Shown piece by piece: positions 21,095 to 51,300 of a stretch of 61,685 nucleotides of DNA (positions are counted from its first letter, which is position 1; the number at the start of each line of letters is the position of its first letter). Origin of the DNA: Scenedesmus sp. PABB004. Lineage: Eukaryota. Both the position numbers and the translations under genes were made by a program. The notes below the pieces were generated by a model. That model saw only the letters and a program-made list of their open reading frames with translations. It was not told the DNA's origin and did no database searches. The stretch is taken from the NCBI GenBank assembly GCA_014905635.1, contig JABVCE010000030.1, positions 372,001 through 433,685 of the forward strand, written 5' to 3'.

Positions 21095-24064
21095 TGCGCG
21101 TGCGCGTGCGCGCGGGCGCGCACGCTGAACGCGGCCGCGAGGTGGTCCTCGCGCGCGAGCTTGCTGAGGTGCAGCGTGGCCGACAGGAACTCCTCATAGT
21201 CGAGCTCACGGTCGCGGTTGGCGTCTGGCGGCGGGGGGGGGGGGGGGGGGGGAGTGCAGCCAGCGCGGCGGGTGCCGGCGCTGGCGGGCCGGCGCGGCGC
21301 GGCGCGGCGCGGCGCCCGCGCGCGGACCGTCCCCGTCCGCAGCGCGGCCCGCCCGGCGTGCAGCCGAGCGTGCGCACCCGCGAGGTCGATGAGCGCGTGC
21401 ACCTCTGCCGCGGGCAGCGCCGCGCCGCGGCCCGCGAGCGCGTCCTGCAGCTCGGCGACGCTGATCGTGCCGCTGCCGTCGGCGTCGATCGCCTCAAACA
21501 CCGTCCGCAGCCCGCGCACCTCGTCGGGCGAGAGACGCTGCGCCACAAACTGCCGCGGGCGCGCGCGGGGCGGGCGGGGTCGGCGCGCGGCCGCCGTCCG
21601 ACGCGCCCGCGCGTCGGACGGCTCGCCGCCTCCCCGCCCGCGCCGCCCCGCCCCGCACCGCCCCGCGCCGCCCCGCGCCTCCCCGCACCCGCAGCGCTGC
21701 CTTCTTGAGCTTGTTCATTGCCGCAAAGGAGCGCAGCCTGTGCAGCACCTCGGGCTCAATCACATTGTCGCCGGCCAGCCCGCCCTCCACGACCCAGGGG
21801 TCGGCCAGCATCTCCGCCGCGCTCGGCCGATCGGCCGGCTTGTAAGACATCATGCGCACGACCGCCGCCTGCGCGCCGCCGCGGCGCGCGGCTCGTCGTG
21901 CCAACCACCCTGGTCCCAGCCGAGCCCCGCGGCCCCCGCGCACGGGCGCGCGGCGCGGCGCGCGCCTTGGCGGGCTCGCTGATCGCGTCCCAGTGGTGCC
22001 CCGTGAAGTCTGGCCGGCCGTCGTCGACGATCATGCGGAACACTGCGCAGGAGGGAGAGTGTTTGGGGGTGGGTCCATGGGGGAGTGATGGGGGGGGTCA
22101 AGGGGTGAGCGAGGGGGTGGGCCCAGGGGAGAGTGTTTGGGTCAAGGGGTGAGCGAGGGGGGAGGGTCCAGGGGAGAGTGAGGAAGCGTCAGAACTCTGT
22201 GATCCGCATTCAACGGTTGCATGCGGACTCTATAGAACGCGCAGGCCGACCTCCTCCTCACTTAAGAGGCGCGTGGCGGTGCTTGGTGCGGTCGACCGGG
22301 CCGGGCCCGCCGGCGGCGCGCGCGTGGCGCCGCGACCCCGCCGCACGCACCCTCGTCGTCGCGCGCGTGCGCAAAGGGCGGCCGCCCGCAGAGCAGAATG
22401 TAGAGGATGACGCCGACCGCCCACACGTCACTCGCCTCGTCGGCGTCGCCCTGTGCCAGCGGCGCGTCGACGCAAGCGAGGCGAGCAGGCGCGGCGCGTG
22501 GGCGGCGCGGGCGGCGGCGGCGCGGGCGGCAGGGGCCTGCGCCGCCCTGGGCGCCCTGGGCCCCCGTGGCGGGGCGCCGGCGCGGCCAGCGTGGCGCACC
22601 ATGAGGACCTCCGGCGCCATGTAGTAGCTGCGGCGGCGGGGCGCAGCGGGGCAGGGCAGGGGAGGGGCAGCGCCGGCGGCGGCGGCGGCGTCAGGCCGCG
22701 CAGCACGCGGCGGCCGGCGCCGCCGCGCCGCGCCGCCGCACCAGGTGCCGACGCAGTCGCGGAGCTTCTCGCCCGGCCGGATGAAGCTGCTCAGCCCAAA
22801 GTCAGCGGCCTTGAGCACGTCGCCGCCGTCGTCGCCCTGGGCCAGCAAGAAGTTGTCTGTTTTCGGGCGAGCGAGAGAAGGAGAGAGAGAGAGAGCGGGA
22901 GAGCGCATAGGAGGCGGCGGCGGCGGCGCAGGGGTTGGAGGGGCTCCGGCAAGGGAGCGGCGCGGGCGGGCCACACAGCGGCCCGCTTGCCGGGGCAGTG
23001 CGAGGCCGCGGCTGGCGCACGCGGCGGGGCAGCAAGGGGGAGGGACGGCGGCGGCGGCGGCGCACCCGGCTTGAGGTCGCGGTGCACCACGCCCAGGCTG
23101 TGCAGGTACGCCAGAACCTGCCGCCGGCGGCAGCCCCGGCGGCGGCGGCGGCGGCGGCGCTCGGCGCCCGCGCCGGCCGGCGCGCCGGCTGCGGCCGTGC
23201 CGTCTCCGCCGCGCCACGCGCGCGCGCGCGCCCGTGCGCGCCGCACCCTGAGCATCGTGCGCACCGCCTCCGCGGCGTCGCGCTCGGTGTAGGACCCCGC
23301 GCGCGGTGAGGCGCGTGACGAGGTCGCCGCCGGGACAGAGCTCCATGACCAGGTGGACGTACGCCCCGTCCTCCAGCGCCTCCACCAGCGAGACAATGTG
23401 TGGGTGCCCTACACGCAGGTCACGGCAGGGCCGCGGGCGCGGGCGGCCGGCGCGCGGGTGCGGCGCGACGCGCGGGTGCGGCGCGGCGCGCGCCCGAGCG
23501 CGTGGCAGCGGCCGCAGGCGGCAGCGCCTGAGCGCGGCGCGGCGCACCCGCGACGTGGTGCATGATCTGCAGCTCGCTGCGCACCGCCGCCGCCTCGGCG
23601 CCGCGCAGGCGCGCCTTGGCGATCGACTTGACCGCAAACTCCCGGCCGTCGCTCCGCCGCACGGCGAGCCGCGTCACGCCAAACTGCCCCGCGCCGAGCA
23701 CCTGCGCGCGGCGGCCGGCCGGCTCGGCGCCGCCGCGCGGCGCGGGGCGGGGCTGGCGCCCGGCGTCACCCGACGTGTCTGCACAGTCAGCGGCGGTGCG
23801 CGCCGCACCTTGCCGACCTCGTACGCCGCGTTGATGTCGTCCGCGTGCGGCCGCCCGAGCACCGAGTTGACCAGCGGCGCGGAGGTGTCGACGGGGCCGA
23901 ACGGCGGCGCCTCCGGCGAGGGCGGCGCAGCCGCCGCCGCCTGTGCGCAGTGCCGGCCGGCGGTGAGCGGAGGCGTGCGCGTGCGCGCGGCGCCTGGTCC
24001 GCGCGCGACCGCTCACCTTGACGTCGTCGGTCTCAGCCAGGCTCGAGGAGCAAATGTTGCCCAT
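20545..24064 (-). CDS. CDPK: Calcium-dependent protein kinase (kinase, junction, 4 EF-hands), about 14 exons
   Basis: MGNIC myristoylation/palmitoylation start; LGAGQFGVT, AVKSIAK, VMELCPGGDL, HRDLKPDNFLL, ADFGLS, YYMAPE, SDVWAVGVILYILLCGRPPF; junction LRSFAAMNKLKKAALR; EF loops DADGSGTISVAE, DANRDRELDYEE, DSDNDGVISRAE, DANADGMIDFAE. One extra base at 23295-23298 breaks the frame (probable sequencing error). Confidence 0.95.
22053..22180. repeat. G-rich minisatellite (about 45-bp unit, 2 copies plus a partial one) in a CDPK intron
   Basis: GGGTCAAGGGGTGAGCGAGGGGG..GGG(C/T)CCAGGGGAGAGTG occurs twice in tandem, with a degenerate copy starting near 22053. Confidence 0.8.
22176..22263. other. 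Imperfect inverted repeat / long stem-loop in a CDPK intron
   Basis: Minus strand pairs GTGAGGAGG with CTTCCTCAC, GTCGG with CTGAC, TCCGCAT with ATGCGGA and CAA with TTG around a small loop. GC content is far below the surroundings. Confidence 0.75.
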
Positions 24065-41800: not shown

Positions 41801-42704
41801 GGCAGACTGCTACGGCGCGCAGCGCGCGTACGACGTGAGCCTGGCGCGGCGGCGACGCGGCGGCGGCGGCGGCCGCGGCGGCGGCGGCGGCCGCGGCGCG
41901 GCGGCGCCGCGCCGCGCGGGGCAGCGCACCGATTGCACCACCACCGCGCTGCTGTCGGCGCGCCGCTCCGCAGGCGGTGCTGCAGCAGGTGCGGAGCCTC
42001 GAGGAGCAGCTCGCGGCGCCGGCCAACGGCGGCGGCGGTGGCGGCGAGGCCGCGGAGCCCGCGGTGCTCGCCGGCCTGCTGGCGCGGCAGGCGGAGCTGC
42101 AGGAGACCAAGGCTGCCGCGCTCGCGGCGCTTCACGCGGCGGGCGACCGGCGGCGCAAGCACGAGGCGGACGCGCACCCCGGCGGTGCGGCCGCCCGGCA
42201 CGCGCCGGCGCGCAGCAGCGCTGCGCTCAGCTGCGCCGCGCGCCGCCCCCGCGCCCGCCGTGAGTCTCACCCGCACGCCACCGCACTGCCGCGGCCAGGC
42301 ACCGACTCGTTTGACCTGGGGCGCCTCGAGGCGGCGGTCGCTGCGGTGCCGGAGCACTCGTACGCGGGCGAGCAGCGCGCGCTGACGCAGCTGAGCCACA
42401 GCCTGCTCTTCCGCGCCGCGCCGCAGCACGGCCACCAGCCGCAGCAGCAGCAGCAGCAGGCCTTCTACGGCAGCTGGCAGCAGCAGCAGTTTGCGAGCTT
42501 CAGCGCCGCCCCGGCGGCCGCGGCGCTGCCGGGCCGCGCGTTCCGGCCGCCGCCGCCGCCGGTGCAGCGCTTCGGCCCCGCGTTTGCGGGCGGCGGCCAC
42601 GCCGTCGTGCTGCGCAGCGTGCTGTGGGAGAGCGCGCACAGCTGCCAGGTGTGCGAGGACACCGACAGCACGATGTACAGCAAGTACATGGCCCTCGGCG
42701 CGAC

Positions 42705-42741
<37 letters not shown>

Positions 42742-42794
42742 GGCGGCGGCGCGGCCAACGGCGCCGGTGGTGCCGGCGGCGCCAGCGGCACGCC

Positions 42795-42833
<39 letters not shown>

Positions 42834-44081
42834 CAAGCGCAAGCACACGCAGGCGCCCGCGCTCGCGCAGCAGCAGCAGCAGCAGCAGCAGCAGTCACAG
42901 CAGTCACAGCTGCAGCCGGCGGCCGCCGAGGCCGCGGCCGCGGCGGCGCGCAGCAACAGCGCCGCCGCGGCCGCGCTCAAGGCGGCGCTCATGGCCAGGA
43001 CGCCGCCGGCCAAGGCGAGCAAGACCGGCGAGGGCGCGAGCGCCGCGCCGCCGCCGGCGTCCCCGGCGGCGGCGCTCGACGCGGCCGCCGCCGCCGCGGC
43101 GAGCGCCGCCGCCGCGCTCGCGGCGCACCAGCTCGGCCAGCCCGCGCCGCGCGGCAAGAAGCAGCAGGGCAGCGTTGGCGGCGGCGGCGGCGGCGGCGAC
43201 GGCTCCAAGCAGCCGCGCCGCAAGAGCCCGTCGCCGCGGCCCAAGCAGGCGGGCGACAGCGGCGGCGAGGGCGCGGGCGGCGGCTCCGCCAGCAAGCAGC
43301 GCCGCAACTCGCGCGGCGCCGCGCTCGCGACGGGCGCCGGCTTTGGCGACCTCTCGAACGGCGCCTTTGCCGTCGGCCCGCCGCCGCCGCCCGCGCCGCA
43401 GAACGTGCCGCTGCCGAGCGGCCTGCTCGGGCGCGTGGCCAGCAGCGGCAGCGTCGGCAGCGCCGGCGCCGCGCGGCCGGCAGCGGCGGCGGCGGCGGCG
43501 GCGACGGCGGCGCCGGCGGCAGCGGAGGCGCGGCGTCGCCCGGCTTCCAGCTGCCGCCCGCCGCAGGCGCGCCGGCACCAGCCGGCGGCTACAACCCGCT
43601 GCAGCACGCGCAGCCGCAGGCGCAGGCGCAGCAGCCGCAGGCGCAGCAGGCGCAGCAGGCGCAGCAGGCGCAGCAGGCGGCGTACCACCAGTTTTATCAG
43701 CAGCCGGCGCCGGCGCAGGGCTACGAGGCGCCGCCGCAGCAGCAGCAGCAGGCGCCGCCGCAGCCCTGGGCCTACCCCGCGCAGCAGGCGCCGCAGCCGT
43801 ACGGCGGCTACGCGCAGGGCTACGCGGCGCCGCAGCCCTCGTACGCGGCGCCTGCGCACTACGGCTACCAGCAGCCGCCGCACGGCTACTCCTACGCCCC
43901 GGCCGCGCGCCCGCCGGCGGGCGCGCCCTACGCGCCGCACGCCCCCGCGTCGCACCCGCTGCGCAGCGTGTCGCCGGGCGGCGCGCCCGCGCCGGGCGTG
44001 CGGCCGCCGCTGCCGCCCGGCGCGCCGGGCGGGCCCGTCGGCGGGCGCCCGCCGCACCCGGGCATCCTGCCGCGGCCGTGA
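38817..44081 (+). CDS. XRN: XRN-family 5'-3' exoribonuclease-like protein, about 11 exons, Q/P/Y-rich C-terminus
   Basis: MGIPGFNTW, DHLYIDMNSVLH, PRKSVMLAIDGPAPLAKLMTQRERR, ALTPGTPFM, GEGEVKI, IVGDDADLI, GNDYLP, WLKGLLWTMSMYF.G.CPDYRWCY, LALLP. The 3' end depends on a probable frameshift near 43480. Confidence 0.88.
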
Positions 44082-44599
44082 GGCGGGCGTGCGGCCGCGC
44101 CAAGGCGTCCCGTCGGGCGGTGGCGGCGGCGGTCTGGCGGCGGGGCGCGCGCCGAGACCCCGCGGCGTGGCCCTGCCAGCACCGCTCGATGTGCGCGCGC
44201 GGCTCGTTGTGCAAACGCGCCCTCTCCCGCGCGCCCGCGCTGCGCCAAGGTGATCATCGTTCTTGGCTCACCGTTCAACACTCGCCCGCACGAGCAGCGC
44301 GGGCCGCGCGCCCGCGCGACGCGCCACCGCGACCTTCGCGCGATCCGCGGGGCCCGCGCCGGGCCGCGGCCGCGCCCCGGCAGCGCCCGCACTGCTGCCC
44401 GACGCGAGCAGCGCGCGCCCGCTTCGCGGCGGACCGCCAGAAGCCGCGGCCCGACCGCGTGCCGCCACCGACAGCGCGTCACTCGGTCCAGCCGCGCGCC
44501 GCGGCTGCCTCCGCGGCAGCGGCGCCGCCGCTGCCGGCGCGCGCTGCGCTGCGCGCACGCGGGCGGCCGCATGGCCCGGCGCCGGTGGCCGCCGCAGGC

Positions 44600-47500
44600 A
44601 TGCCGCTGAGCCAGGCCGCCGGCGGCGCCGATCGGCGGGCCGCCGGCGGCGCCGGCGCCGGCGCGGCGCGGCGGCGGTCGCCGCGCCGCGACGCGCGACC
44701 GCTCGCGGCGTGGTGCCTGCTCGTCGCCGCGCTGCAGCTCGCAGCAGCGGCAGCGCCGGCGCCGGGCGCGCCGGCGGGGCCGCTCTGCAGCGCGACGATC
44801 AACTATGGCGCGAGCGTCGGCGACGCGAGCAAGCGCACGACGGCCGAGGTGCCCATCTTTGTGGGCAGCTTCGACGTGGTCGTGACCGGCGGCAGCGCCG
44901 CCGCCGCGGACCAGGTGCGGACGGCGACGCGCGGCAACGCGCGGCGACGCTCGGCGGCGCGCGCCCGACGGCCCCGCGCGCCCGCCGCCCCCGCGCCGCC
45001 CGCCGGCACGCGCGCGCTCGCGGCGCGCGCGCCAGGATGCCGGCGCGCCTGCGGCCGCCGCGGGCGACGCCTGGGTGCTGGGCTGGGGCTTCACCGCGGG
45101 CGAGCACATCCAGCAGCAGCGCGACGTGTTTGGCGGCGAGGGCATCCGCGACGTCCAGCTCGCCGGCGGCGGCGGCGGGCCGCAGGCACAGGGCGTCGCG
45201 GTGCTGAGTGAGCGCGCGCGCCGCGCGCGCCCGCGCGCGCGCGCGCAGCGCGCTGCGCCCCCGTGCGCGGCCGCCGCCGAGCGCTCGACCCCGCCGCCGC
45301 GCGCTGCCGCCGAGCGCGCAGGCAACGGCAGCGTCCCGCGCGAGGCGACGTTCAGCTTTGTCGGCCGCAAGGGCCCGCCCGGCGCGGCACCCGACGCCGC
45401 GCCGTTCCGCGTGGCGCCGCCGGCGCTGGTGTTTTTGAACAACCAGTACTGCTGGTGAGGACGAGGGAGGGGGAGGGAGAGCACGGCGGGGGGGGGGGGG
45501 ACCGCTGTCAGCGGCGCGGGGCCGCGATCGGCGGCGCGCGCCGCCTGCGCCCACGCGCCCGCCGCCGCCGCCGCGCGCGCAGGCCACTGCTGCGCACCGC
45601 GTCCGGCGCGGGCGGTGCCGGCGCCGGCGCGGCCGGCGCGGCCAACGGCAGCGCCGCGCCGGCGCCGGCGGGCGAGGTCGCGGCGCCGGCGCTGCCGCCT
45701 GCGGCGCGGCCGGCGGAGCTGGTGGTGGAGTACCTGCCCGTTGAGTTTGTGGGCGAGGAGCCCGGCGTGTTTGCCAAGACGCTGACGCAGTTTTACGTCA
45801 AGTGAGAGAGGCGGGCTGGGCGGGCGGGCGCGCGCAGGGGGAGGAGTGCCTCGGTCCGCCCTTCGGCGCGGCGCCGGCGCGCGCACCCTGCGCGCCGCCC
45901 GCGCGCGCCGCAGGGTCAGCAACGCGCGGCCGCCGGGCGCGCCGCCGGTGCTGCTGGACGAGGTGCGGCTGGAGTACTGGTTCCAGGGCCCCGCCGACGA
46001 CAGCGGCGGCAACGCGAGCGCGGGCACCGCGGCGGCGGCGGCGCTCGCGGCGTCGCAGTTCAAGCTCACGTGCAGCGACGCGACGCCGGGCGTCGGTGCG
46101 CGCCGCGCGCCGCCGCGTGGCGCCCGCTGCTGCGCCCGCTGCGCCCGCTGCGCCCGACCCCCGCAAATGGCCAATGGCGCCGCCTGCGCGCGCAGGCTGC
46201 GACGGCATCGCCTGGAACGTCACCGCCGGCCTGCCCGGCGTGTTTGGGGCACGCTTCGTGGTGCGCGCGTGCGGCCGGGCGGGCGCCCAAGGGCCGCGCG
46301 GCGCGAGCTCGCCGCTGCGGCCGCCGCTCACGCGCCCGCCGCCGCCACCGCCGCCGCGGGGCGGCCGCAGCTCAACCTGTGGTTCCCGCCCCGCGCCGCC
46401 AACGCGAGCGGCGCCGCCGCGACGCGCGCCCTCCTCCTGCCCAACGGCACCGCGCCCGGCAGCGCCGGCGCGGCGGCAGCGGCGGCCGCCGCCGCCCCTG
46501 GCGGCCGCGTCGCGGCGCTGTCCGAGTTCGAGGGCATCCTGGCGCTGGACTATCGGCGCTTCTTTGCCGAGCTGCGCGCGCGGGACGACTACAGCTACAT
46601 GGACACGCCCCTCGCGCCCCAGGCGGCCGAGGCGGCGGCCGCGGCGGCGGCGGGCGGGCGGCCCGTGCCCGTGCGGCGGCTGCGCGAGCCCAACCCGCGC
46701 ATCCCGGCGTTCCTCGGCGGCCGCCTCGTGTGGGGCAGCCCGCCCGCGGCGGTGCGCATGGTGCGGGCGCGCGCGCGAGCGGGGGCGCGGGCACGCGGCG
46801 CGCGCCCCGTCGCGGCGCGCCGTGCCCACCGCCGCCTGCCCGCTTGTCGCCCGCGCAGGAGCCCGGCGCCAACGCGAGCGCCGGCGCGGGCGGCGGCGGC
46901 GGCGGCGACGCGGGCGGCCAGCCCGGCGCCTTCCCCCCAGGCTCCTACTGCCAGCGCGGCGCGGACGGCGCGCTGGTGTGCGGCGTGGACATGGTTTACT
47001 GCTGCATCGGCTCAGCGCCCCTCGCCGGCGCGGCGCCGCTCGACTGGCGCGCGCGCCTGCAGGCCAGCGCCGCGGCGGCGGGGTCGGCGAACGGCGGTGC
47101 GGGCGCCGGCGGCGCGGCGCCAGCCGCCGCCAGCGGCAGCAGCGCCGGCAGCGCGGCGCCTGCCGGCGGCGCGGCGCCCGCCGGCGGTGGCAGCGACCTG
47201 GGTGCACCCGGCGGCGGCGCCACGAGCGGTCCCGGCGGCGGGCTGCCGCCCCTTGCGCTGGCGCTGGCGGTCGCGCTGCCGGTGCTCGCCGTCGCCGCGG
47301 CGGGCGTGGTGTTTGCGCTCCTGCGCTGGGCGCGGCGGGAGATCCGGCGCAGCGCCAGCGCCGGCAGCAGCGCCGACGGCGACAGCAGCCTGCTGCCGCT
47401 CTCGCGGGGCACGCCGCCCGCCGGCGCACGTGCCCCCGAGCCGGGCGAGCAGCTGGCGTCGCTGAGCGGTGGCGGCGTGGCGGTGCGCGGCTCGGGCGGA

Positions 47501-48333
47501 GGCCTGCTCAGCGCCCTGCTCAGCCCGCGGCGTGGCGGGCTGGGTGACAGCTGCTCTGACCGCGCCGGGGCGGTGCCGGGCGGCGACCGTTGGTGCGCGG
47601 CGTGGTGCCTCCACGGCAGCGCGGCGGACGAGGAGCAGAGCGACGCCTGCGCGCCAGCAGTGCTCAAGTTGCCGTCCCTGCGGGCGGCTGAGCCGCCCGA
47701 GCTGGCGGCGTTTGGCGGCTTCGGGCCGGCCGGTGCCGCTGGAGGAGCAGAGGCGTGGCGACAGGCGGGCCAGGCCACGCCGGGGCTGTGGCAGGCGGCC
47801 GCGGCGGCGGCTGCGGCGGCGTCGACGACGCACGGCGGCGGCGAGCTCTCGGCGCTGGAGCCCGCGCGCGTGGCGCCACCGCCGCAGCTTGTGCGGCTCG
47901 TGCGGCCACGCGGCCGCACGCTGCCTGACGCCGTGCTGGGGCGGGCCATCGAGCAATACACGGCCTGGCAGCGCCGCCACGAGCTGGCGGAGCAGCCGGG
48001 CGGCGGCTGCGAGGGCGTCGGCTGCGAGGGCGTCAGCTGTGCCGGCACGGGCGCGGGGCCGGAGCCGCAGGACGTCGCCGCACGGTGCGCGCCGGCGTTG
48101 CGGGAGAGCGGGCGGCGGGGTGCTGTCGACGTGCGCGCGCGCGCGCCGTGGCCCCCGCTGCCTGACGCGAGGGCGGCGCACGCGCGCAGGTGCGCCACGT
48201 GGGGCGGGCGCCTGAGCGATGACGCGTTTGGTGAAGAGCTGCTGGATTTTCTCGTCCGGCGCAACCTCTGCCGCGAGATGCCCTGCGCCGACGGCCGCGG
48301 GGGCGGCGGTGCCGGCGGCAGCCCCGGGGCGCT

Positions 48334-48368
<35 letters not shown>

Positions 48369-51300
48369 CAGCGGGGGCAGGGGACGAGGCGATGCTGGAG
48401 CCCCAGCCGGAGGGGGCAGGGTCGGAGCTGGGCGGCGCGGGCGGCGCAGCGCCGGCGGCCACCGCGGCGGTGGAGGCGGCGGTGGCGGCCATCAACGCGG
48501 CCATCGCAGGCCACGCGCCCGGCGGCGCCGGCGCGGGCGCCCGGGCCCCCACTGCGCCGGCCGGCATGCTGGGCGGCGGCGCCGCCGCGGCGTGCGCGCT
48601 GGACGCGCTCATTCCCAGCCCGCCTGGCCCCGATTCTCCGGCCCCCAGCTTCTACAAGGCGCGCGCCGCGCCGCGCCGCGCCCGGCGCCTGGCCGCCGCG
48701 CACGGCTTCCGCGGCCGCCGCACGCTGGCCCTCGCGCCGCGTCACAAGCTCCGCGCGCCCGCCGCGCCCGCGGCGGCGGCCGCAGGCGCTCATGGCCTCC
48801 GGCGGCGTGCTGCACCCGCCCGGCGGGCCGCCCATCCCTCTCAACGTTGACTTTGAGGCCGAGATTGCGCCCCACCTCGGCCGCCTGCTGGGTGCGGCCG
48901 CCTGCTGGGCGCCGCGCGCGCGCCGCGGGGCCTGCCCCACGGCTCCGCCCTGCGCCGGGCGCGAGCGCTGCTGCTAACTGCGCCCACCGCGCCGCGCCCG
49001 CCGCACCCAGGGCGCGGCGGGTTCGGGCACGTCTACGAGGCCACCTGGCGCGGCCGCAAGGCGCGCGCGGCGGGGCCGCCGGCGGCGCGCCCGGCCCGCG
49101 CGCGCGCTGCGACGCGCGCCCCCGCGCCCGCCGCACACGCGGCGCCGCCGCTCGCCCCGCGCCCGCCGCACCAAACCGCCACACACACGCACACACACAC
49201 ACGCACGCACGCGCGCGCCGCAGGTCGCGGTGAAGCTGCTCGCCGTCGACGCGGACGACCCGGCCGTGCTGGACGCGTTCCTCAAGGAGGTCGCCCTCTG
49301 CGCCTGCCTGCGCGGCAGCGACCGCGTGGTCAAGCTGCTCGGCGCCTGCATCGCCGGCGTGCGCCGCGCCCGCAGCGGCGGCAGCGCCGGCGGCAGCACC
49401 GGCGGCGGCGGCGGCGGCGGCGGCGGCAGCGAGCCCGGCGAGCCCGGCGCCGCGCCGGCGGCGGTGCGGCGCGGCGCGAGCGGCGGCAGCGGCACGCCCG
49501 GCACGGACCTCGGCCGGCCGTCGTCGCCGTTTGGCGCGGCGCTGCCTGACGGCGTCGCGGCGACCAGTGCCACGGGCGGCGGCGGCGAGGCGCAGGCGGC
49601 GCCGCCGCCGCAGCAGCAGCAGCTGGCGCTGATCATGGAGCTCGTCCCGGGCGGCAACCTGGCGCAGCGCATCTACAACCCCAGCAAGCGCCGCCTGAGC
49701 TACCTCGAGGCGCGCGCCGCGCCGCGCGCCGCACGCGCCGAGCGCTGCGCCGCGCCGCACGCGCACGCCGCGCCGCGACGGCTGCGTGCGGCCGCAGGTG
49801 CTGCAGATCGGGCTGGACGTCGCGCGGGGGCTCGCGTACCTCCACCCCGCGGTCGTGCACCGCGACATCAAGCCCCAGAACCTCCTGCTCGACGCCGCCG
49901 GCCGCGTGCGCATCGCAGACTTTGGCATCAGCAGGCGAGAGCGCAGGGGCGAGCTGCGTCACGCGACCCAGCGGCCCCGGCTGGGCGGCCGGGCGCGCGG
50001 GCGCGCGGGTGTGTGTGTGCGCGCCGCGCCCACGCGCCGCCGCGGCGCCCGCAGGTTCAAGGACCCACACCGCAGCTACCTGAGCGTGACGCACCAGGGC
50101 GGCACGCCCAACTACATGGTGCGCGGCGCGGCGCGGCGCGGCGGGGCGCTCGGCCAGCGCGGCCGCAGCCCAGCACGGCGCGACCCGCCGGGCACTCCCC
50201 GCGCCGCGCGCGCCCGGCGCTGCGTGCGCCCCGGGGCGGACGGGCCCGCGCCGAGCACGCCCCGCGCGCGCGCGCGGCCGCGCAGGCGCCGGAGCTGTTT
50301 AACGGCACGCGCGTGGACGAGGCGGCCGACGTGTACAGCCTTGGCTGCATCCTCTACGAGTGCCTCGCGCGCCGGCAGCCCTTCGGCGAGCTCGCGGGCG
50401 AGGCCAAGTCGTTCAACGTGCTGTTCAAGGCGCGGCGCGGGCGCGGCGCGGGGGCGGGGGGCGGGGTGGGGGACTCCCCGCGGCCGGGCCGGGCCGGCAG
50501 GGCGCGCGAGCAGGCGCGCGCGGGATGCCTGCCTGCGCGCGGCCGCCGTGACGCCGGCCGCCGCTTTGCTGCCGGCGCCGGCGCAGATCATCGTGGCGGT
50601 GGCCATCAACAAGGAGCGCCCCGTGCTGCCCCCCGACACGCCGCCGCGGCTGGCCGCGCTCATCTCGCGCTGCTGGCTCGAGGACCCGGCGGCGCGGCCG
50701 CGCGTGCCCGCGCTCGCGGCGGAGCTGAGGGAGCTCATTCAGGCGCGCACGCGGGGGGCGGGGCGGGGCGTCGGGCGGCCTGCAGGCGCCGCTGCCCACG
50801 CGCGCCCGCCGGCCGCGCGCGTCTCGCCAGCCGGGCTCCGTCTGTCCCCCACACTCCCCGCCACGCTTGCGCGTCGCACAGGAGGAGCTCGCGGCGCGCA
50901 CCGAGCAGCTCTGCCGCCTGCGGCGCCTCAGCGGCCGGTCCAACAGCGTGCTGACGAACTGCAGCGCGCGCAGCGGCAGCAGCGACAGCAGCGACGGCGC
51001 AGCCACTGCCACGCCCGCGCAGCCGGTCGCAGCGGCGCTCGGCAGCCGCGCGGGCTCGCTCGCCAGCACCGGCAGCAGCAGCGACTTTGCCACGGCCGCC
51101 GACGGCAGCAGCCTGGCGGCGGCGACGGCCGGCGGCGGCGTGCGCGCGCTCAGCGCCACCGCCAGCAGCCGCAGCAGCAGCCGCAGCAGCCTGGCGCCGC
51201 TGGGCAAGAGCAAGTCGGACGTCGCGGCGGCGGCCGCCGCCCTGCACGACCGCGCAGCGCAGGCGGGCGCCCGCGGCGCCGCGCTCGCCGTCGCCGCCAC

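Follow-up and report, generated by a model that had tools for sequence, protein, structure and literature searches.

We analyzed a 61,685-nucleotide stretch of Scenedesmus sp. PABB004 (assembly GCA_014905635.1, contig JABVCE010000030.1, positions 372,001 to 433,685 of the forward strand), referred to below as the window, which carries a predicted receptor kinase gene. Profile searches and fold models indicate that one module of this gene, 236 residues long after splicing and encoded by four exons on the + strand between window positions 45716 and 46745, is a divergent CBM3; in homologues, the module was modeled as a beta-sandwich with the topology of CBM3 (~150 residues). We consider it likely that the module is the half nearer the membrane of an ectodomain that pairs it with a CBM2-like module, within a single-pass receptor kinase that is conserved in core chlorophytes and would serve as a glycan or wall sensor. 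CBM3 modules have been described chiefly in bacteria, where they occur in cellulases, scaffoldins and RsgI sensors; in this gene, one is hard-wired to a eukaryotic kinase. The peptides quoted in the initial annotation of the module, which had been made from the sequence alone, were all recovered between these coordinates and in the order proposed.

Identity of the CBM3 module and integrity of its gene

A family profile of 30 rows, the window's exons included, was searched against the PDB sequences at E ≤ 10. Thirteen distinct sequences were matched, and six of these, at ranks 1 to 4, 6 and 13, were CBM3 modules: 6d5b_A (E = 4.9e-6, 29.3 bits), 4b97_A (E = 1.5e-3), 2wnx_A (E = 0.011), and additionally 4b9c_A, 4b96_A and 3zqw_A. 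The seven other matches were acetyltransferases, with E values of 1.5 to 2.2. The alignments to the CBM3 chains were collinear through an N-terminal strand motif, the G-A-x-[FY] strand, the DYS motif and a C-terminal motif, N-x3-[PT]-A-Y-x4-L-x-WG-x2-P, that is common to the family and the CBM3 chains; phmmer searches of the PDB with the Tetradesmus proteins returned nothing useful. When neighbors were sought with a language model, the 12 nearest Atlas clusters, at a score of 0.95, all carried PF00942, the Pfam CBM_3 family. Pfam itself was scanned with 23 homologues. CBM_3, for which the gathering cut-off is 22.4 bits, was matched in 6/23 of them, always over the same profile region, at 14.6 to 18.4 bits (E = 0.003 to 0.047), and two Tetradesmus proteins and two fragments gave no CBM_3 match. 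The precomputed Pfam lists, from a newer release, carry PF00942 for P0035, P0054, P0057 and P0059.

To stand in for the window module, the modules of two homologues, P0035 (40% identical to that of the window) and a Tetradesmus protein (56%, 128/227 residues), were modeled with AlphaFold, with a pLDDT of 89.6 and a pTM of 0.86 for the former and a pLDDT of 87.1 for the latter. Foldseek returned 41 matches at E ≤ 1e-3 for the P0035 model (best, 4b97 at 8.3e-14); among the matches listed, all were CBM3 modules or GH9-CBM3c enzymes. For the Tetradesmus model, 38 matches were obtained at the same threshold, with an E value of 2.7e-9. VIA-align, searching 48,161 representatives, superposed the P0035 model on 4b97_A with a Z score of 22.1 (rmsd, 1.8; 150/151 residues), and five further CBM3 chains followed at Z scores of 20.2, 19.3, 18.3, 16.0 and 14.1 before the next non-CBM3 fold at 9.0. 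The Tetradesmus model likewise matched 4b97_A best (Z = 16.5; rmsd, 2.2; 151/151 residues), with six CBM3 chains at Z scores of 13 to 16.5, a calcium-free CBM3 at 7.5 and the next other fold at 6.8. With both models, Z scores above 13 were reached by CBM3 chains only. We read the module as CBM3 because of these three lines of evidence, namely, the family profile matched against solved CBM3 chains, the two fold models and the Atlas neighbors that all carry PF00942, and on the same grounds the CBM3 likeness proposed in the initial annotation is upheld.

Conservation within the module was counted per position among the alignment rows, with totals that vary by position up to 37. D, Y and S of the DYS motif and an Asn are each present in 37/37 rows. 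In the C-terminal motif, W is present in 35/36 rows, G in 37/37, the final P in 36/36 and L in 30/36, and the P-A-[YF] positions are kept in 34 to 36 of 37. The Ala of the G-A-R-F strand occurs in 32/32 rows, and Tyr and Trp of the L-x-YWF motif occur in 19/21 rows each. Two Cys residues, the first present in 24/24 rows and the second in 28/29, likely form a disulfide. In the CBM3c of Cel9I, Asp577 is a calcium ligand, and Asn576-Asp577-Tyr578, Pro595, Tyr597, Leu602 and Pro608 are listed among the residues of the calcium site and of a shallow groove (PMC4579020). In the family, D-Y and P-x-[YF]-x4-L-x5-P are spaced in the same way as Asp577/Tyr578, Pro595, Tyr597, Leu602 and Pro608, this mapping to Cel9I numbering being made by motif spacing and by hidden Markov model alignment to other chains. 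The groove Arg and Glu are apparently replaced, by Q or E in the L-x-YWF motif and by N in an F-x-L-N strand.

The G+C content is 75 to 83% throughout the window, and stop-free frames are found across it in all six frames; for this reason, open frames carry no weight as evidence for the gene, and the gene model was judged by its splice sites and homologues. The splice model for exons 1 to 8 contains seven introns, GT..AG in all, and its junctions are in phase and stop-free. The module opens at 45716 with the GAG of ELVVEY and closes at 46745 with the final P of WGSPP; the introns within it, between exons 4 and 7, measure 112, 100 and 110 nucleotides, lie in phases 2, 1 and 0 and each run from GT to AG, in agreement with the four exons first proposed. 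Exon 7 alone (130 residues) matched 43 representative proteins among 1.84 billion at E ≤ 1e-3, 19 of them at E ≤ 1e-10 and the best at 1.8e-30, and a word-index search with the same exon found four proteins, two of which are from Tetradesmus obliquus. Matches of the window module to the family range from 1.8e-30 to 1e-16.

The spliced product was aligned end to end with P0003, P0025, P0035, P0045 and P0047, and the alignment with the full-length homologues crosses every exon junction without a gap there; collinear homologues were found in Tetradesmus, Monoraphidium, Haematococcus, Chlorella and Auxenochlorella. When the Monoraphidium protein P0047 served as the tblastn query, collinear pieces were obtained from 45336 to 50742, corresponding to P0047 residues 63 to 1082, which places the CBM exons and those of the kinase in the same gene. 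The predicted splicing is thus supported, at the level of sequence, by homology as well as by canonical sites. Two fragmentary proteins, P0002 and P0022, look like intron read-through at the position of the window's exon 5/6 junction, and three others, P0001, P0010 and P0017, begin at the position of the exon 6/7 junction; these apparent gene-caller artifacts suggest that intron positions are common to the window gene and its relatives.

Several points weigh against the assignment or against the function drawn from it. None of the four exon pieces of the module gave a CBM_3 match when scanned singly against Pfam, and none of the 23 homologues reached the cut-off, the best remaining at 18.4 bits. 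Long Ala/Gly-rich loop insertions and the family-specific Cys pair are not found in the aligned bacterial CBM3 chains, and the fold evidence comes from homologues rather than from the window module. In addition, some CBM3 subtypes do not bind cellulose, which is why ligand and function are inferred here. If the likeness to CBM3 were convergent, or that of a generic beta-sandwich, the module would be an unrelated algal domain, a reading that can call on the Pfam scores, never significant at the curated cut-off, and on an identity to solved CBM3s of just 14 to 26%. We regard it as very improbable and already close to refuted, given the E value and collinear motifs of the profile match, the alignment of all target residues of 4b97_A but one, the distance of 5 to 13 Z units that separates the CBM3 matches from other sandwiches and the independent repeat provided by the Tetradesmus model. 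An equally remote alternative is that the gene model is an artifact of high G+C content or that the locus is a pseudogene. Open frames everywhere in the window would be in keeping with an artifact; however, the junctions are canonical, in phase and free of stop codons, the window copy keeps every conserved position of the family (e.g., both Cys, DYS, N, WG and P), and it is collinear with full-length homologues as far as the kinase. A divergent CBM3 in a genuine gene remains our reading. The absence of a significant CBM3 hit, which had been named beforehand as evidence that would speak against the annotation, was thus borne out for Pfam, where CBM_3 always stayed below threshold, but not for the profile and fold comparisons, where matches to CBM3 were strong. 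A gathering cut-off is an operational threshold and not a property of the protein, and this case shows that Pfam thresholds overlook a module that profile and fold comparison recover.

Gene organization and neighboring modules

The single + strand gene spans 44600 to ~50770. Its product begins with a signal-peptide-like stretch, followed by the CBM2-like and CBM3 modules, a Cys-rich stalk, a single transmembrane helix and, last, a protein kinase (Table 1). Since the same gene carries both the transmembrane helix and the kinase, the suggestion in the initial annotation that the CBM3 had been recruited into signaling holds.

Table 1. Exons and kinase segments of the predicted receptor kinase gene, in window positions
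Feature	Position	Strand	Content and support
Exon 1	44600..44914	+	ATG, hydrophobic signal-peptide-like stretch (by eye), start of CBM2-like module; donor GTGCGG; collinear with homologues
Exon 2	45036..45207	+	Core of CBM2-like module, W-x-LGW-x-F motif; splice model, homologue alignment
Exon 3	45322..45454	+	End of CBM2-like module, last Cys codon 45450-45452; splice model, alignment, tblastn with P0047 residues 63-101
Exon 4	45583..45801	+	Ala/Gly-rich linker, then first CBM3 strands from 45716; splice model, alignment
Exon 5	45914..46095	+	CBM3 strands with L-x-YWF motif, low-complexity loop, first conserved Cys
Exon 6	46196..46260	+	Second conserved Cys, G-A-R-F strand of CBM3
Exon 7	46371..46760	+	Remainder of CBM3: DYS motif, N-x3-P-A-[YF]-x4-L-x-WG-x2-P; module end 46745
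Exon 8	46859..48090 (3' end approximate)	+	Stalk motif 46949-47047, transmembrane helix ~47243-47323, start of cytoplasmic region
Kinase domain	48804..50769	+	At least 6 exon segments; collinear by tblastn with P0047, P0035 and P0055
Kinase tblastn pieces	48804-48893, 49010-49060, 49200-49352, 49623-49706, 49795-50118 (contains intron), 50289-50429, 50584-50769	+	tblastn

The CBM2-like module is bounded by Cys residues and extends over exons 1 to 3, from the first Cys codon at 44786 to 45452, the terminal Cys being present in the window copy. Its nearest Atlas clusters are PF00553 (Pfam CBM_2), with scores of 0.92 to 0.94. P0035, at 26.2 bits, is the only homologue above the CBM_2 cut-off of 24, and the precomputed Pfam list for P0046 also carries PF00553; exons 1 to 3 of the window, each scanned singly, gave no Pfam CBM_2 match. 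The W-x-LGW-x-F-x2-GE motif of this module is reminiscent of the N-terminal part of plant COBRA proteins. No COBRA match was obtained in any Pfam scan at E ≤ 1, and kinship with COBRA proteins is not claimed.

Between the CBM3 module and the membrane lies a juxtamembrane Cys-rich motif, C-x9-C-x5-YCC ... P-x-W, which is kept in all full-length homologues and for which the Pfam scans gave no known family; exon 8 was also matched by tblastn with P0047 residues 385 to 428. The single hydrophobic transmembrane helix that follows, identified by eye, is conserved in homologues, and a long low-complexity cytoplasmic stretch separates it from the kinase. A (GCA)12.7 repeat at 48334-48372 gives a poly-Gln run in this cytoplasmic linker, and a frame upstream of the gene, at 41839-44253, also has long poly-Gln runs.

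The kinase exon at 49795-50118 matched Pfam Pkinase with 50.6 bits (cut-off, 31.7). The GxGxxG, VAVK, HRD, DFG and APE motifs can be read in the kinase domain, which appears intact, with its catalytic motifs kept. In the intron preceding the VAVK exon (49060-49223), there is apparently no GT directly after the last matched codon (…CGCAAG|GCGCGC); this intron may use a GC donor, or its donor may lie further downstream. A (CA)-rich repeat at 49180-49210 falls in the same region. Elsewhere in the window, a short tblastn match to P0047 kinase residues 855 to 887 on the - strand (23308-23403, E = 9.8e-5) hints at a further kinase gene, encoded on that strand.

Distribution, origin and proposed function

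All homologues that carry a name are from Chlorophyta (Tetradesmus, Monoraphidium, Haematococcus, two Chlorella species and Auxenochlorella). To these, a 2026 survey of receptor-like kinases in 34 chlorophytes (PMC12757656) adds, in its supplement, Coccomyxa sp. Obi, the ulvophyte Ostreobium quekettii and a relative in Ostreococcus tauri. The last of these, A0A1Y5IIG4 (PMC12757656, Table S1), has a CBM2-like module, a Cys-rich stalk with a related form of the juxtamembrane motif, a transmembrane helix and a kinase, and it has no CBM3. Accordingly, either core chlorophytes gained the CBM3 by insertion or Mamiellophyceae lost it. A word-index search with the full-length alignment, a profile dominated by the kinase, added only P0060 of Volvox africanus, probably through its kinase.

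A maximum-likelihood tree was computed from the 31 module rows that cover 150 or more residues of the module span; the alignment had 37 rows (36 from databases plus the merged window row), and the 6 shorter ones were left out. Two clades were recovered at 100/100, one with the three named Trebouxiophyceae and the other with the three named Chlorophyceae and the window, which grouped with Tetradesmus at 95/97. Descent of the module within core chlorophytes looks vertical in this tree. As the module tree is congruent with the classes and at least one intron position is apparently shared, any transfer would predate the split between Trebouxiophyceae and Chlorophyceae. For prokaryotic relatives, conservation along the family alignment was too low to supply a search pattern. 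A pattern scan with exon 7 as the single query, which finds close relatives only, produced 585 matches across 185,579 species genomes, 0 of which were confirmed by tblastn.

As for function, the proposed ligand of the ectodomain is an insoluble glycan with beta-1,4 linkages, which may be cellulose, a glucosamine- or chitin-like polymer that the alga has in its wall, or material of this kind in the surroundings. Ligand binding would shift the cytoplasmic kinase from one state to another, and the architecture suggests a receptor for wall integrity or for glycans. The closest working analogue would be clostridial RsgI, in which an extracellular CBM3 senses polysaccharide.

Two matters were weighed around this proposal, the ligand and the origin of the module. 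The module could have the CBM3 fold and a ligand other than crystalline beta-glucan, holding a soluble oligosaccharide, a wall glycoprotein or a peptide in its shallow groove, or it could simply display the CBM2-like module, acting as a rigid spacer. The positions most conserved in the family match, by spacing, the shallow-groove and calcium-site residues of Cel9I and not those of the flat face, and this groove is reported to be conserved regardless of the ability to bind cellulose and possibly to accommodate peptides or linkers (PMC4579020); the Ostreococcus relative, with its CBM2-like module, stalk and kinase and no CBM3 (PMC12757656), is also consistent with a non-cellulose ligand or a spacer. 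We nevertheless think such a role unlikely, as glycan binding is the simplest reading of a tandem of two modules of the cellulose/chitin type, the fold models come closest to RsgI sensor modules and to a cellulase CBM3, and the Cel9I residues were mapped from motif spacing and not by residue-level superposition. Glycan binding by the tandem ectodomain is thus retained as the proposed function. Regarding origin, the CBM3, perhaps together with the CBM2-like module, may have passed from a bacterium into an early chlorophyte and then gained introns and been fused to a receptor kinase, as the initial annotation had supposed in speaking of an old horizontal acquisition. The nearest Atlas clusters of both modules are 97 to 100% bacterial, every solved relative is bacterial, and all named eukaryotic homologues belong to Chlorophyta. 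However, Atlas taxa do not, according to the Atlas notes, give the range of a family, the tree covers algal modules only, the pattern scan, a weak test, found no close prokaryotic relative, and the class-congruent algal clades with a shared intron position fit long vertical descent equally well. We therefore find a transfer plausible while leaning slightly away from it; if real, it is old.

A more specific scenario, which we offer tentatively and rate as rather less probable than transfer as such, is that early chlorophytes took two bacterial modules that bind crystalline polysaccharides, CBM2 and CBM3, and built from them a kinase receptor that reads the state of cellulose or chitin-like wall polymers. 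Such a receptor would be an independent, convergent counterpart of RsgI and, as a sensor of wall integrity, would have no kinship with the malectin and WAK receptors found in land plants. If the ectodomain does bind the alga's own wall polymer, the receptor would be a simple candidate for wall-integrity sensing in green algae, evolved apart from land-plant receptors.

Comparison with known systems

In the literature on CBM3 with green algae, receptor kinases or horizontal transfer, only the chlorophyte survey (PMC12757656) was found to be relevant. In its supplementary tables, orthologues of the window gene are matched to RsgI1, RsgI4, 'glycoside hydrolase WP_045175321', GH9 and CBM_3 (Tables S2 and S5) and also to CBM_2, and the novelty implied by the initial annotation was accordingly overstated, since orthologues had already received the same annotation in that supplement. 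In the main text of the survey, 'cellulose-binding' occurs once (cellulose-binding modules), and RsgI and anti-sigma do not occur. The window gene is a new orthologue in a recorded but unnamed and undescribed family, and the window itself adds one more member to a family already in the databases.

Among chlorophyte receptor-like kinases with CBM2-like and CBM3 modules, its relatives include Monoraphidium neglectum 'Nodulation receptor kinase' (P0047), Chlorella variabilis CHLNCDRAFT_138610 (P0055), Chlorella vulgaris D9Q98_009209 (P0057), Auxenochlorella 'shkC' (P0056) and Tetradesmus OEZ86_004457 (P0003), together with A0A087SE27, A0A8J9SA59 and A0A8S1J1Z1 in the supplement of PMC12757656. 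The window gene shares with them the domain order, the Cys-rich stalk motif, the kinase and a collinear alignment, and it differs from them in being extremely G+C-rich and in its Ala/Gly-rich loop insertions.

In fold, the algal modules are closest to the CBM3 modules of the Clostridium thermocellum RsgI anti-sigma-I factors (4b97, 4b9c and 4b9p), the best matches having Z scores of 22.1 and 20.2 for P0035 and 16.5 and 15.3 for Tetradesmus, at an identity between RsgI modules and algal models of just 19 to 26%. RsgI factors are polysaccharide sensors (PMC6852018, PMC10328401), and, as in the algal gene, an extracellular CBM3 is tethered to a protein that crosses the membrane once and passes its signal to the cytoplasm. 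The output differs, being a sigma factor released after proteolysis in the bacteria (PMC10328401) and a kinase in the algae, and the algal family has in addition the extra Cys pair, the loop insertions and a preceding CBM2-like module. With the CBM3a, CBM3b and CBM3c modules of cellulosomes and cellulases (1nbc, 1g43, 6d5b, 3zqx and 2xfg_B), the algal module shares the fold and the C-terminal WG..P motif and, judged by spacing, apparently also motifs around the calcium site and shallow groove (groove residues from PMC4579020); those modules reside in secreted enzymes or scaffoldins, whereas the algal CBM3 is part of a predicted receptor.

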